From Escherichia coli (lineage in GTDB: Bacteria > Pseudomonadota > Gammaproteobacteria > Enterobacterales > Enterobacteriaceae), in the NCBI RefSeq assembly GCF_029227855.1, contig NZ_CP074357.1: DNA of 64,000 nt; one strand, 5' to 3'. Below the pieces are notes generated by a model. The model did no database searches and was not told the DNA's origin. It saw only the letters and a program-made list of their open reading frames with translations. Shown here piece by piece: positions 28,362 through 41,105 of the stretch. Position 1 is the first letter of the stretch; every line of letters begins with the position of its first letter. A program made the position numbers and the translations under genes.

Positions 28362-29186
28362 TTAGCGGCGAAGATCAATTTCAAGGCGGGCTGTTTTGAC
28401 CTTTGTTCCGGACTCCCTAAATGTATCATCCGGAAGAGGCGAAATTTGTCCGCCAAGTTGTTTGACTCGCTCCCTGAGCGCTTTTGTCAGTGTGTCTTCC
28501 CGGAACAATACCCCAGCTGACAGAATGGCCTGTAAGCGACCTCGCTTAGCGAGCATTGCGATGGCATGCATGACATGTTTAACGTCAGAGCGTTTAAGGA
28601 ATGGTGGATTCATAACGATAACATCAAAAGTTTCATCGGGCTGGTACCCAAGAAAGTCGGTATGCACCAGCTCGGCCCCTGTGCTAAGGACACTATCGTT
28701 CTTCACTGCAAGGAATCGCTCATCGTTCAATTCGATCCCGGTAATCAATGCATCCGGAGCCGCCAGTTTTAAGGCTTTCAGAATGCGGCCATCACCAAAC
28801 TCAGGCTCCAGAACACGTTCCCCGGCAGCTGGTTCAGCGCGTAGAACCATATCTGTGACTAAATTCTCAGGGGTAGGGAAGAAATTGAACAAATCACGTG
28901 GGATGTCGACCGAACCTGTCAGAATGATTTGCTCGATACGCTCAGCTGCATCCGCCGTAAAAATATGTGCCTGCTCTTTTCGGTTCCATTTGCCACCGGC
29001 AGCTTCCAGCACTTTGTTTGTCTTAACATAAATGCTGCGGTCGAGCTGGTCGGCCAGGAAAAGAAAGTTCCCTTCAGCACGGCAGCGAGATAAGACGTTC
29101 AGAACTTCAGTTGAGATTTGCATTAAAACTCCATTAAGAGGATTTACCCGCCTGGCGGCAGCGGGTTGGTTACTTAAACAGGACAA
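28362..29186 (-). CDS. N6-adenine-type DNA methyltransferase (NPPF motif)
   Basis: 274 aa; LEPEFGDGRILK (motif I-like), DVIVMNPPF (motif IV); paralog of the C-terminal domain of 9561-11252. Confidence 0.78.
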   Translation of the reverse strand: MSCLSNQPAAARRVNPLNGVLMQISTEVLNVLSRCRAEGNFLFLADQLDRSIYVKTNKVLEAAGGKWNRKEQAHIFTADAAERIEQIILTGSVDIPRDLFNFFPTPENLVTDMVLRAEPAAGERVLEPEFGDGRILKALKLAAPDALITGIELNDERFLAVKNDSVLSTGAELVHTDFLGYQPDETFDVIVMNPPFLKRSDVKHVMHAIAMLAKRGRLQAILSAGVLFREDTLTKALRERVKQLGGQISPLPDDTFRESGTKVKTARLEIDLRR

Positions 29187-29203
29187 TTCAGATTTGGCCT
29201 TGG

Positions 29204-29968
29204 TTAGTCGGCAGACAACAGCAGGGATGGGCTGTTATAAGCGAAGCGGTCAACGGGAGCCTTCTCAAATCGCTGACCGCTTGCATCAGGGGTCAGAACG
29301 AGTCCGTTATGGGCGCAATGAATGTGGAGCAACATATCCCCGCCGGTGTTGATGTGTAAGGCAGGCACACCCTGATCGATTTCGAACATGACACCAAAAC
29401 AGGGGTTACCTTCCTTGTTAACAACTTCACAGTGGATGTTATGTTGGCCGGTAACGCTGACCTGATAGGCCTGACTGTCCTCTTCTCTCAGTGTTTCCTC
29501 CTCCAGGCGCCAGTCCTGAAGTGTGAGGCTAATTTCAGGGGTATCATGCTCCTTCTGAAGAGCCTGGATACCTTTACGGAACAGCTGCATCATTTCATGA
29601 GTAAGGCAGTCTTCCTCAGCTCCAAAATGTTCTTTCCAGCCTTCAGGATCTGCATACATCCAGACGTTTTTAGCGAGCGAAGGTAAGGAAGCATCAGGCT
29701 CTACAAGGAGGTGAGGGATGCTCTCTTTGATTCCGAGATAACGTACTGGCTGGCCGTTAAGCGGTAACCCATCCGGCACTGTAACTTCAGCTCCTGGCAA
29801 GACGACGCTGTTTACCAGACCTCCACAATGTTCTGCCACCACCCGGCCTAAATCTGCCATAAACATCCGATGCTTTTCTGGTGAGTCCAGCTCACCAAGG
29901 AGTTCAGGTTTAAGCAGTAAACCGGTAATAATCTCAGTCAGTTCACGAGGAGATACTAATTTATACAT
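29204..29968 (-). CDS. Hypothetical protein
   Basis: 254 aa; first gene of the minus-strand block. Confidence 0.5.
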   Translation of the reverse strand: MYKLVSPRELTEIITGLLLKPELLGELDSPEKHRMFMADLGRVVAEHCGGLVNSVVLPGAEVTVPDGLPLNGQPVRYLGIKESIPHLLVEPDASLPSLAKNVWMYADPEGWKEHFGAEEDCLTHEMMQLFRKGIQALQKEHDTPEISLTLQDWRLEEETLREEDSQAYQVSVTGQHNIHCEVVNKEGNPCFGVMFEIDQGVPALHINTGGDMLLHIHCAHNGLVLTPDASGQRFEKAPVDRFAYNSPSLLLSAD

Positions 29969-30196
29969 TTTGTTTTCCTTTTCTGTGTTGGCTTTATATT
30001 AACAATCCAGATGCACGAGCTAATAACCTCCAGACAACTTTTTCAAAAATTATATACTTAAAGCAGGGGCTAATATGCGCAAGAAATGAATTTAGGAAGG
30101 ATGGCTTCAAATTTAACTTTTTGGTTTTTTATTTTAGACGGACTTTAAAATAGCATCGCTGGTAAAATAATAAACATGGTTTATTTTTTGTTTGTA

Positions 30197-30225
30197 TTGA
30201 CAATCAAATGGGTAAAAATTAATTT
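30197..30225 (+). promoter_or_regulatory. Candidate sigma70 promoter (-35 TTGACA, weak -10)
   Basis: Perfect TTGACA at 30197-30202, TTAATT/TAATTT 16-17 bp downstream; about 65 bp upstream of ORF 30289. Confidence 0.3.
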
Positions 30226-30288
30226 ACTTACATGGCGTATATTTAATGCCACCGTCCCGGCGGCACCGGGCATAAAAGGAAAACCATC

Positions 30289-38664: not shown

Positions 38665-38922
38665 ATGTCTGAAAAACACTTTATCGTAAAGATCCAGAAC
38701 CGTAACGGCGACCATGAGAAAAGCTATGTTCGTATACTCGTCAGCGATTGTGAGAAAAATGCTTGCCAGACGGCACTGATTTCCGAGTGTGCTGGCGAGG
38801 TTGAACAGCTGAGTTTTGAAGACGGTGGGGTTTATGACTACAACGGCGAAAATCACTACAGTGTCAGGAGCTGCGTGGAGGTTGCCCCTGAAGATGTTGC
38901 AACTTTGCAACGCTACCTTTAA
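38665..38922 (+). CDS. Hypothetical protein
   Basis: 85 aa; RBS GGAGG. Confidence 0.5.
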   Translation: MSEKHFIVKIQNRNGDHEKSYVRILVSDCEKNACQTALISECAGEVEQLSFEDGGVYDYNGENHYSVRSCVEVAPEDVATLQRYL

Positions 38923-39065
38923 CACCTGCGGCATTAAAAAAAATATCGGGTGTCTGTTACAGGATGCCGCTGTTTTAAACGATGCCTCAAAGATCGCTAT
39001 CGCTCCTGATGCCTTCATTAAGAGCGGGTTTGTGGTAGGTTCAGCGTAACAAAACTACTGGAATT

Positions 39066-39686
39066 TTGGTTGCCTCGATGAAGAGCTGCTTTTCTGATTT
39101 ACCCGTTAAAGACGGCAAGTCCGGAACTTGGAAACTGGACACTTTCGAAATTACCACAGATAAGGCGCTGACCCTCGCCCTTCGTGCCGAGTGTACTGGT
39201 AATACAGATGAGTTTATCCCGCCCGGTAGATATCGCCGCTTGTCCAACGGCTGGGATGTGGTGATGTCCAATACCCCGATGGAGATCCGAACCTGCCAGG
39301 ATTTTATAGAGCGAGCCACCGGGCGGGTGCTCATTAATGGTCTTGGTCTTGGTATGGTGCTCCACGCCATTCTTCAGAAAGACGATGTAACCCATGTCAC
39401 GGTAATCGAAAAAGAACAGGATGTTATTAACCTCGTTGCAGCCTCGTTTGCAACCGATCTTCGCGTTGAAATTATTAATGCTGATGCAATGGAGTATTGT
39501 CCACCAGCTGGCGTTACGTACAACGCTTGCTGGCATGACATATGGACAGACTTCGCAACAGCTAATCTCGCACAGATGGATAAGCTGGAAAGTAAGTACC
39601 GGGACATCTGTGACTGGCAGGGATCGTGGGGCAGGGAGGAGTGTGAGCAAAAGCTCATTGAGTTCCAGAATCTTGAGGCTGATTAA
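39066..39686 (+). CDS. Putative SAM-dependent methyltransferase-fold protein
   Basis: 206 aa; glycine-rich loop VLINGLGLGMV, acidic residue after beta-2 (VIEKE), IINADAMEY; no (D/N)PP(Y/F) motif. Confidence 0.45.
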   Translation: MVASMKSCFSDLPVKDGKSGTWKLDTFEITTDKALTLALRAECTGNTDEFIPPGRYRRLSNGWDVVMSNTPMEIRTCQDFIERATGRVLINGLGLGMVLHAILQKDDVTHVTVIEKEQDVINLVAASFATDLRVEIINADAMEYCPPAGVTYNACWHDIWTDFATANLAQMDKLESKYRDICDWQGSWGREECEQKLIEFQNLEAD

Positions 39687-39854
39687 TCCAACTTGCGAAG
39701 GTGTCTCCGCTAAAGGAGCCCGGCTCGCTCTGTGCAAGCCCAGCTGTGCTGCATGATTTGGCAAAGTCTTCAACAAACCAGATCGGTCTGATTTAGTAAT
39801 CTCACTTCCAACCATCAGGCCGATATAATAACTGTATCCCCATTAGGATGGCTG

Positions 39855-41105
39855 ATGAGTACGATTAATACGGACTTAATTGCGCATATCTACGCTGCCT
39901 CCGAATCGCCGTTGACCAACGACGAGCTTTATCGCGAAGTGCAGCGTAAAACTGGCATGTCGGATGCCGAATTGCACGAACTGAAAGAATTTGGGTCAGA
40001 TAAAACCAGAACCAGCGGCGTCAAACATAAGGTTCGCTGGTTTCAGCAGACTCTCCGTCAGGCCGGGGTCATCGAACGCGTTCCAGAAAAACGGGGCGTC
40101 TGGAGATACGCCTCTAAGACGAAAACAAACCTGCATGAGTCATGGGAAAAGCTCTGTGTTGTCGGTTTCTCAACTTCTCTTGGGGCATCGGTTTTTGGAA
40201 ACGCCTATGCCTTCTTCAGCAATATCACCGAGCAAATTCATCTTTGCCTGACCTCGCCACCTTACCTCCTTCGAAATTCAAGAGACTACGGGCACGGAGG
40301 GGGGCGTGGCGAGCAGGCTTATATTGACTGGCTTCTGCGTATCCTCGAACCGATCGTGAAACAGCTTGTACCGGGCGCAAGTGTGGCATTGAATATCACT
40401 CAAGATAGCTTTAATAGGGGTAGGCCTTCACGTTCTCTGTATCTGGAGCGTCTGACACTGGCATTATGTGACAAGCTGGGGCTTGAGCTCATGGACAGGC
40501 TTCAGTGGGTGAATCGCAGTAAGCCCCCATCGCCAACGCACTGGGCATGTAAGCAACGGGTGCAGCTCTGCTCATCGTATGAGCCTGTGCTGTGGTTTAC
40601 CAATGATGCGAGTAAGGTTCGTTCAAACAACTTACGTGTACTACAACCGCATTCAGACCAGCATCTAAAATTGCAGGCAGCAGGCGGTGAAAATCGCACG
40701 ACCTTTTATGGTGATGGGGCGTACCAGCTTAAAAGCGGTTCCTTTGGAAATAAAACAGAAGGAACGATCCCCAAGAATACTTTGTTTTACGGCAATAGCT
40801 GCGCTGATACGAGATTTTGCCATTCCATTGCCCGCGAGCTCGGTTTTCCGCTGCACGGTGCAACGTCTCCTACCAGGCTTGCAGCGTTTCTGATTGAGTT
40901 TTTGACAGAGCCGGGAGATCTTGTTGTAGATCCCTTCGCTGGCTTGCATAAAGTCCCCATCGCAGCCGAGCGACTTGGCAGACGTTGGCTGGCGACGGAC
41001 AAAATCATGGAGTGGCTGGCGATTTCCCGAAACCTTTTTACGGCCGCACCGGGATATAAGAGTAACCCCATGCTGGATGAGCTCGCCGAACTGTATCGGA
41101 CTTAA
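39855..41105 (+). CDS. Beta-class DNA methyltransferase (N6A/N4C type) with N-terminal winged-helix-like domain
   Basis: 416 aa; motif IV LTSPPY precedes C-terminal motif I VVDPFAGL (beta-class order). Confidence 0.75.
   Translation: MSTINTDLIAHIYAASESPLTNDELYREVQRKTGMSDAELHELKEFGSDKTRTSGVKHKVRWFQQTLRQAGVIERVPEKRGVWRYASKTKTNLHESWEKLCVVGFSTSLGASVFGNAYAFFSNITEQIHLCLTSPPYLLRNSRDYGHGGGRGEQAYIDWLLRILEPIVKQLVPGASVALNITQDSFNRGRPSRSLYLERLTLALCDKLGLELMDRLQWVNRSKPPSPTHWACKQRVQLCSSYEPVLWFTNDASKVRSNNLRVLQPHSDQHLKLQAAGGENRTTFYGDGAYQLKSGSFGNKTEGTIPKNTLFYGNSCADTRFCHSIARELGFPLHGATSPTRLAAFLIEFLTEPGDLVVDPFAGLHKVPIAAERLGRRWLATDKIMEWLAISRNLFTAAPGYKSNPMLDELAELYRT

Follow-up and report, generated by a model that had tools for sequence, protein, structure and literature searches.

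Five methyltransferase-related genes on the IncHI2 backbone

The DNA considered here (hereafter the window) is a 64,000-nucleotide stretch of the Escherichia coli contig NZ_CP074357.1, and it is part of the conserved backbone of IncHI2 (R478-type) plasmids. Five methyltransferase-related genes span positions 6968 to 41105, a distance of 34.1 kb that holds roughly 35 genes: a Dam-family gene, a gene in which a DUF4942 domain is fused to a gamma-class methyltransferase core with the catalytic tetrapeptide NPPF, a compact gene for a second NPPF enzyme, a gene for a 202-residue S-adenosylmethionine (SAM)-fold protein, and a gene for a beta-class enzyme with the tetrapeptide SPPY. An earlier reading made from the letters alone (the sequence-only reading) had reported five genes with a methyltransferase fold in 35 kb, and we found all of them where it had placed them. 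Our own count for the window is four DNA-methyltransferase-like genes and one SAM-dependent enzyme.

A search of plasmid records with positions 28000-42000 found dozens of plasmids from Salmonella and E. coli with 100% identity. There were 1169 matching records, 930 of them with at least 80% of the query covered, and the majority were typed as conjugative. The top match, NZ_CP039861.1, is a 245-kb sister plasmid typed as IncHI2A, MOB-H and MPF-F that lines up in reverse (window position x is approximately 198798 minus the record position). The window is the part of the backbone that separates transfer regions 2 and 1, and it includes both replicons (a RepB-family gene and repHI2), three genes for immunoglobulin (Ig)-like proteins and several insertion sequences (ISs). 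A block containing the Dam, ParB-like and DUF4942 genes is shared with the IncHI1 plasmid R27 at 70-74% identity; the compact NPPF, 202-residue and SPPY genes are absent from the 99 kb of syntenic R27 sequence. No mention of the five RefSeq protein accessions was found in the papers searched.

The Dam-like gene and the GATC clusters at both replicons

The Dam-like gene (6968-7780, minus strand, 270 residues; the longest open reading frame [ORF] reaches 7801) is annotated by RefSeq as a Dam family methyltransferase. Its product passes the curated cut-off of TIGR00571 (227.6 bits against 114.85, E = 2.2e-67), matches the PADLOC models for orphan and type II methyltransferases at about 1e-69, and has motif I (FIGGG, residue 33) ahead of DPPY (residue 181), which is the order of the alpha class of N6-adenine DNA methyltransferases. 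From this homology the enzyme probably has GATC specificity. It is 71% identical to its R27 homolog.

Between the Dam-like and DUF4942 genes is a gene for a ParB-like helix-turn-helix protein (8150-9313, plus strand, 387 residues), directly upstream of the latter and co-oriented with it. Matches were obtained to the phrog_1033 ParB-like family (3.3e-28), to Pfam HTH_ParB (1.7e-4) and, below its cut-off, to TIGR00180 ParB (6.7e-8). The ParB-like/DUF4942 gene pair is kept in R27 at 74 and 70% identity. The protein is one of three ParB-like paralogs in the window (3884-4939, 8150-9313 and 60384-61568, all on the plus strand; 26-32% identity, E = 5e-9 to 6e-26), which exist besides the true partition genes of the plasmid.

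The overall frequency of GATC in the window is as expected, and its distribution is uneven: the densest 300-bp interval has eight sites against 1.1 expected (Poisson P = 2e-5). This reflects a cluster of nine sites at 19556-19862, just upstream of repHI2 (19934-21022), that is interleaved with the RepHI2 iterons (21-bp spacing, at 19187-19300 and 19611-19720) and is a possible target for Dam methylation. A second cluster, with six sites in 160 bp (3562-3722), is upstream of the RepB-family gene (2532-3407, minus strand). The GATC-iteron layout at repHI2 resembles that of origins whose firing depends on Dam methylation, such as P1 oriR. Clusters at both replicons suggest Dam-sensitive control of an origin or promoter, in which the Dam of the plasmid itself could take part, and replication control may thus be an additional role of the Dam-like gene, as judged from the sites at the RepHI2 origin. 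Directly downstream of repHI2 (21430-22500) there are also about 12 tandem 81-bp repeats, each with an inverted pair of the iteron core (GACAAYGGTAGTGAG), probably an iteron bank for copy control or incompatibility.

These clusters also speak for an account in which the enzymes, chiefly the Dam-like one, methylate plasmid sites controlling the initiation of replication, the copy number, partition or the expression of transfer genes, rather than shielding the plasmid from restriction. For the epigenetic control proposed in the sequence-only reading they are the only support, an indirect one that concerns the Dam-like gene. Regulatory roles for methylation in plasmid transfer are recognized (Dimitriu et al., PMC11602122), the Dam, ParB-like and DUF4942 genes are located between the two replicons and are syntenic in R27, and the N-terminal winged helix of the SPPY enzyme might bind DNA in a regulatory capacity. 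However, four different specificities are hard to account for by regulation alone, and the published methylome of Salmonella Senftenberg 775W, discussed below, has no plasmid-specific motif. Furthermore, in the IncHI2 plasmid of that strain, pSSE-ATCC-43845, which has been maintained since the 1940s, the Dam-like gene (44436-45209) is truncated after nucleotide 764 by IS903B. Enterobacteria also have a host Dam already, so that the clusters at the origins need no plasmid copy. We consider it unlikely that housekeeping of this sort is what the enzymes are for.

Two gamma-class NPPF enzymes

The larger NPPF enzyme (9561-11252, plus strand, 563 residues) consists of a DUF4942 domain (Pfam, residues 96-290, E = 4.9e-22) fused to a C-terminal catalytic core in which NPPF is at residue 486 and motif I is weak (LEPNIGHA). 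It also matches Pfam MTS (1.2e-4) and phrog_6263, 'DNA methyltransferase' (1.6e-112). The compact enzyme (28362-29123, minus strand, 253 residues) starts at an ATG at 29123 in RefSeq, the longest ORF (28362-29186) having a TTG start. It has an N-terminal alpha/beta domain of about 75 residues followed by the core, with FPTP (residue 82), VLEPEFGDG (104) and NPPF (172) in the order X, I, IV that is expected of an M.TaqI-like fold. The sequence-only reading had described the catalytic domains of the two enzymes as related, and they are indeed 27% identical over 183 residues (E = 5e-12).

The closest structures to the compact enzyme are M.TaqI, M.BseCI, HsdM and CamA, and the top two structural matches as well as the top PDB sequence match for the NPPF enzymes are DNA adenine methyltransferases. 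Unlike M.TaqI, M.BseCI and CamA, which have 382-547 residues and a separate target-recognition domain, the compact enzyme has no such domain, as its predicted secondary structure ends with the catalytic core, and it has the N-terminal domain of about 75 residues instead. A separate target-recognition domain is likewise missing from the DUF4942 enzyme.

Members of the NPPF family occur in at least 5000 records of plasmids and in 222 of phages; the family is also found as domains inside giant phage proteins and takes in the methyltransferase of the MADS defence system (a PADLOC match). One member on an IncF plasmid (30% identity, E = 6e-18) immediately follows a DUF3560 gene in a region that has the partition genes on one side and an accessory island on the other; an antirestriction gene is about 3 kb away.

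An Mrr_N winged helix fused to an M.PvuII-like methyltransferase

The SPPY enzyme (39855-41105, plus strand, 416 residues) had been described as a beta-class enzyme with an N-terminal winged-helix-like domain, a description that its domain matches bear out: Pfam Mrr_N at residues 17-84 (1.8e-6) and N6_N4_Mtase (PF01555) at residues 128-390 (1.3e-21), together with the PADLOC type II methyltransferase model (1.2e-46). SPPY (residue 134) precedes motif I (VVDPFAGLH, about residue 359), which is the beta-class order. Against the structure of M.PvuII (PDB 1boo) residues 105-392 align with residues 10-291 of 323 (E = 2.3e-39), a match that includes the target-recognition region. M.PvuII is the N4-cytosine methyltransferase of the PvuII type II restriction-modification (R-M) system, and the SPPY enzyme resembles it in near whole-chain homology, including the region between motifs IV and I, in an S-P-P-aromatic motif IV and in the beta-class order. 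Because it is an M.PvuII homolog with that motif IV, it probably produces N4-methylcytosine (m4C). It differs from M.PvuII in its extra N-terminal Mrr_N winged helix of about 100 residues, in having FAGLH at motif I where M.PvuII has FGGSN, and in that no R.PvuII-like gene adjoins it.

Homologs of the Mrr_N-SPPY fusion with 45-53% identity occur on an IncC plasmid, a Klebsiella IncHI1B/IncFIB plasmid, a Pseudomonas megaplasmid and an Aeromonas element, and SPP is invariant among them, which indicates that the fusion is old. On the Pseudomonas megaplasmid an 'N-6 DNA methylase' gene is 2 kb from the SPPY homolog. In total, the SPPY family was found in 2277 plasmid records, 1889 of which are conjugative.

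CAGCTG, the PvuII site, occurs 38 times in the window against 16.5 ± 4.2 in dinucleotide-preserving shuffles. We therefore rejected avoidance of the site, which is commoner than expected; the excess may come from codon usage, which such shuffles do not preserve. CAGCTG is also the predicted specificity of putative plasmid-borne beta-class methyltransferases in a Salmonella survey (PMC4393132), whose homology to the SPPY enzyme could not be confirmed. A methyltransferase with the same predicted site is listed for the 221-kb plasmid of Salmonella Typhimurium CFSAN001921 (CP006050); its IncHI2 status was not confirmed and it is not used as evidence here.

A 202-residue SAM-fold protein

The gene immediately upstream of the SPPY gene (39078-39686, plus strand; 39066-39686 in the sequence-only reading) had been reported to encode a methyltransferase-fold protein lacking a canonical motif IV. 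Both parts of that description stand: the AlphaFold2 model (pLDDT 95) has the class I SAM-methyltransferase fold, and a motif search found no (D/N/S)PP(Y/F/W) tetrapeptide in the protein. The accompanying implication of action on DNA is not borne out: the nearest folds are small-molecule enzymes, namely guanidinoacetate N-methyltransferase, O-methyltransferases and spermidine (polyamine) synthases. Sequence identity to guanidinoacetate N-methyltransferase and the spermidine synthases is only 12-16%, and in contrast to these the family is located in plasmids and prophages rather than in metabolic operons. It has conserved NGLGLG, VIE, ADA and WHDIW motifs and no Pfam home. A specific assignment as a polyamine aminopropyltransferase or spermidine synthase was rejected (NF002956, 24.1 bits against a cut-off of 472; Pfam Spermine_synth, E = 0.2), as was a specific kinship with the NPPF family, for which a profile-profile alignment covered only the generic motif I-III region at a probability of 15%. 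On the model, then, the protein is not DNA-methyltransferase-like and resembles small-molecule methyltransferases.

Some of the enzymes might not act on DNA at all. The two NPPF enzymes and the 202-residue protein would then have RNA, protein or small molecules as substrates, and the target could for instance be a factor of host defence or of translation. The nearest folds of the 202-residue protein and the want of a separate target-recognition domain in either NPPF enzyme are consistent with this idea. For the NPPF enzymes it is opposed by their best structural and PDB sequence matches, all DNA adenine methyltransferases, and by the occurrence of their family in phage and plasmid contexts annotated as DNA methyltransferase and in the MADS methyltransferase. 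We regard this reading as distinctly improbable.

None of the genes has a cognate restriction endonuclease

In a type II R-M system the gene for the cognate endonuclease adjoins that for the methyltransferase, and we found no such arrangement at any of the five genes. PADLOC (which holds restriction endonuclease models) and PHROGs were used to scan 20 proteins, comprising the candidate enzymes, the flanking ORFs and nearby genes, and no match to a restriction endonuclease was obtained among them. Nor is a restriction enzyme annotated anywhere in the 245-kb sister plasmid. The genes are thus solitary, as the sequence-only reading had noted in finding no obvious cognate endonuclease. Its broader interpretation, a protective methylome or epigenetic control of plasmid genes, holds as to orphan status and enzyme classes and has to be amended as to the SPPY enzyme, probably an N4-cytosine methyltransferase, and the protein without motif IV, which is like small-molecule methyltransferases.

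An HNH endonuclease is encoded 6.6 kb downstream of the SPPY gene (47749-48315, plus strand; phrog_2118, 1.7e-55), and at least three more HNH genes are present elsewhere in the sister plasmid. We considered the nearby one as a partner of the SPPY enzyme and rejected it, since it is intact in pSSE-ATCC-43845, where the SPPY gene is frameshifted. It has no homolog in the first 99 kb of R27.

Outside the window, the sister plasmid has a 1428-nucleotide DNA cytosine methyltransferase gene (71470-72897), followed by a DUF1173 gene, and a gene for a short DUF4942-only protein (75949-76767, 819 nucleotides). The plasmid as a whole therefore has six or seven methyltransferase-related genes, whose products might potentially form N6-methyladenine (m6A), m4C and 5-methylcytosine (m5C).

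Published methylomes and the proposed role

Two published data sets bear on whether these enzymes leave a mark on DNA, and they go part of the way towards the absence of plasmid-dependent motifs that the sequence-only reading had named as the outcome that would speak against it. Both NPPF enzymes and the 202-residue protein have identical counterparts (the same RefSeq accessions) on pSSE-ATCC-43845, and yet the single-molecule real-time (SMRT) methylome of the host strain, Salmonella Senftenberg 775W, consists of six motifs that were all assigned to chromosomal genes (PMC5347186, Table 1); the NPPF genes may or may not have been expressed in the culture used. That methylome permits no conclusion on the SPPY enzyme, as the gene on this plasmid (17235-18484) lacks one G at codon 288, inside a run of Gs, and in a PacBio-only assembly such a deletion may be a sequencing artefact. 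In the second study, a survey of Salmonella, plasmid gamma- and beta-class methyltransferases, including those with CAGCTG predicted, were matched to no observed motif, and the authors discuss silencing (PMC4393132).

Given the 775W methylome and the location of the genes outside a recognizable leading region (see below), constitutive sequence-specific methylation by the NPPF enzymes is unlikely. It fits better that they would be silent in ordinary culture, limited to conjugation, or of low specificity or low level.

The missing motifs could also mean that the genes are largely inert cargo, remnants of former R-M systems or hitch-hikers with mobile elements that are silenced by H-NS and Hha and have little present function. 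The sister plasmid does encode its own H-NS and Hha, disrupted copies exist in pSSE-ATCC-43845, three of the five genes are missing from the syntenic part of R27, and two of the enzymes depart from the usual motif I, the DUF4942 enzyme with a degenerate version and the SPPY enzyme with an unusual one. Against this, the proteins hardly differ among about a thousand IncHI2 records. Moreover, the Mrr_N-PvuII-like fusion has been kept in IncC, IncHI1B, Pseudomonas and Aeromonas elements with motif IV invariant at only 45-53% overall identity, and long-term purifying selection is therefore indicated. Inertness of the set as a whole seems to us quite unlikely.

Our preferred reading, to which we assign a probability of roughly 0.5, is that the genes constitute an IncHI2-backbone arsenal of solitary modification enzymes that would serve mainly for surviving restriction when the plasmid changes host; the 202-residue protein does not count as a DNA methyltransferase in it. 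It builds on what is observed directly, that is, the presence, class, orphan status and conservation of the genes and their family links to leading-region and phage orphan methyltransferases, and extends this to presumed activity, targets, timing and protection. Protection from restriction is the established role of orphan methyltransferases of plasmids and phages (PMC7736820, PMC11602122, PMC11541004); M.EcoGIX, for instance, shields pESBL on entry (PMC7736820). The kit would comprise four enzymes, a Dam-type enzyme forming m6A at GATC, an M.PvuII-type enzyme probably forming m4C at CAGCTG or a related site, and the two related gamma-class adenine enzymes, to which the sister plasmid would add an m5C enzyme of the Dcm type, encoded beyond the window. 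The plasmid would reach the recipient as a single strand already methylated in the donor, and synthesis of the complementary strand would then produce hemimethylated DNA, a form that most type II enzymes leave uncut. As they have no separate target-recognition domain and no motif in the published methylome, the gamma-class enzymes would either be silent in ordinary culture and turned on around conjugation, or act with low specificity or at a low level. A hint of regulation of the former kind comes from the cytosine methylase of R27, which is 4.7-fold higher at 25°C, the temperature permissive for IncHI conjugation (PMC7366339).

Several points weigh against the arsenal. Besides the two methylome studies, the disrupted copies in pSSE-ATCC-43845 imply that the Dam gene, and the SPPY gene too if its frameshift is real, are dispensable for plasmid maintenance. 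The Dam-like gene is redundant in enterobacterial hosts, which supply their own Dam; a plasmid copy would therefore matter mainly in Dam-poor hosts. The location of the genes is likewise unfavourable. From the presumed origin of transfer (oriT), upstream of mobI, the relaxase operon extends in the direction of the window, and the five genes are 36-70 kb from that oriT, on the relaxase side, which by the usual rule is transferred last. This 'late side' is a presumption, as the oriT of IncHI2 is poorly defined and neither the nick site nor the direction of transfer is established; a paper on IncC and CRISPR repair contained no information on that direction. MOB-H plasmids, moreover, show no leading-region peak of anti-defence genes in a study from which PTU-HI2 was left out for want of a known oriT (bioRxiv 10.1101/2025.04.03.647016). 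We also found no long inverted repeats resembling Frpo single-strand promoter hairpins in positions 27000-48500, and the number of sigma-70-like sites, 14, was below the 23 of shuffled sequence.

The question matters as IncHI2 plasmids are major carriers of mcr, extended-spectrum beta-lactamase (ESBL) and heavy-metal resistance genes. No complete anti-defence system was found in IncHI1A, and the efficient conjugation of R27 into other Enterobacterales was called unexplained (bioRxiv 10.1101/2025.04.03.647016). A set of orphan methyltransferases is an obvious candidate answer for efficient conjugation of the R27 type. If, on the other hand, the enzymes are silent or irrelevant, counts of methyltransferase genes say little about the ability of a plasmid to evade restriction.

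Other features of the window

From 30289 to 63881 (about 34 kb) nearly all genes are on the plus strand, mostly small ORFs of no known function that point to the relaxase operon just past the right end of the window. Across this block the cumulative GC skew climbs steadily (from 0.01 to 0.38), which could reflect the direction of replication, transcription or the organization of the transferred strand.

Around the RepHI2 replicon are the genes for three paralogous Ig-like-domain proteins of about 810 residues (16370-18826, plus strand; 24488-26908, minus; 32434-34851, plus; 29-41% identity). Ig-like proteins of IncHI plasmids, the class that includes these three, are reported to be needed for conjugation (PMC6764697).

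A RelE/ParE-family toxin gene (35806-36102, plus strand) is followed 8 nucleotides later by a 393-residue ORF (36111-37292, plus strand), and the pair is kept in R27. The second ORF, of which RefSeq has a shorter version as 'flavin reductase', had no match in NCBIfam, PADLOC or PHROGs and is an odd partner for a toxin. Further along (44289-46673, plus strand) is a gene for a 794-residue DndC-like protein of the phosphoadenosine phosphosulfate (PAPS)-reductase family (PADLOC DndC, 4e-38; NCBIfam DndC, 6e-34, below the cut-off; Pfam PAPS_reduct, 3.7e-5). It has a homolog of 75% identity in R27, no other dnd genes are near, and the C-terminal 430 or so residues have no domain match; its similarity makes it a candidate for another enzyme that modifies nucleic acids.

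ISs have inserted into the backbone at 149-1950, 11648-13960, 14277-15245, 22746-23986 and 54935-56304. The types are IS21/IS100-like (judged by ORF sizes of 340 and 260 residues), IS66 family, IS5 family, ISKpn18 (IS3 family) and IS150. It is the IS21-type insertion that makes the left end of the window (1-2000) unlike the reference plasmid.

Comparison with known plasmid-borne methyltransferases

Orphan methyltransferases are enriched in the leading regions of plasmids (Samuel and Burstein, 2024, PMC11541004). The NPPF domain resembles these, and the class I SAM methyltransferases of IncF plasmids, in being solitary and plasmid-borne and in matching the IncF gene close to an antirestriction gene and DUF3560. 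The genes of the window differ from leading-region orphans in their distance from the presumed oriT (36-70 kb), in that two of the five are on the strand opposite to the main co-oriented block, and in the absence of hairpins.

A second comparison is with M.EcoGIX and M.BceJIII, orphan adenine methyltransferases of plasmids that have loose specificity, guard DNA on its entry and are difficult to recognize as ordinary motifs (Fomenkov et al., 2020, PMC7736820). ParB homologs are present in the leading-region neighborhood of M.EcoGIX, and here a ParB-like gene is directly upstream of that for the DUF4942 enzyme. M.EcoGIX and M.BceJIII are specific for single strands, and their likeness to the enzymes of the window is one of description. 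The more interesting remainder of our analysis is the gamma-class pair without recognition domains and the 202-residue SAM-fold family. A bolder proposal, which we hold to be quite doubtful, is that MOB-H plasmids (IncHI, IncC), in which known anti-defence genes are few or lacking, rely on modification enzymes limited to conjugation, that the gamma-class pair is of low specificity or directed at single strands as a second, unrelated solution of the M.EcoGIX type, one of the two perhaps guided by the ParB-like product of the upstream gene, and that the 202-residue family is a new anti-restriction enzyme acting on DNA, a host protein or a small molecule. If true, a conjugation-limited set would explain both the missing motifs in ordinary methylomes and how R27-like plasmids cross restriction barriers.

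As to density, the 4.6 Mb of E. coli K-12 encode about four DNA methyltransferases. Five such genes among about 35 in 34 kb is far denser than a bacterial chromosome, and in this respect the density is unusual, as the sequence-only reading had claimed; for large MOB-H plasmids it is normal. In one panel, orphan methyltransferases were present on all plasmids larger than 90 kb, and the IncA/C plasmid pKAZ3 had five, one of which blocked EcoRII (PMC11602122). The observation is thus real but ordinary, a known phenomenon on an annotated and very common plasmid backbone (about a thousand plasmids in the databases). The set is like those of IncA/C (IncC) plasmids, which are also MOB-H with several orphan methyltransferases, and an IncC plasmid has a 50%-identical SPPY homolog with a ParB-like gene about 1 kb upstream. 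IncA/C backbones carry dcm1-3, and deletion of dcm1-3 from pVC211 abolished its transfer (PMC6555945). These dcm genes (1626, 1428 and 924 bp) are different genes from those of the window, and for the IncHI2 enzymes we found no experimental study. The closest parallel in composition is in the plasmids of Salmonella Cubana CFSAN002050, which have one alpha-class (GATC), two gamma-class and one beta-class (CAGCTG-predicted) methyltransferase, the same composition by class as in the window (Pirone-Davies et al., PMC4393132).

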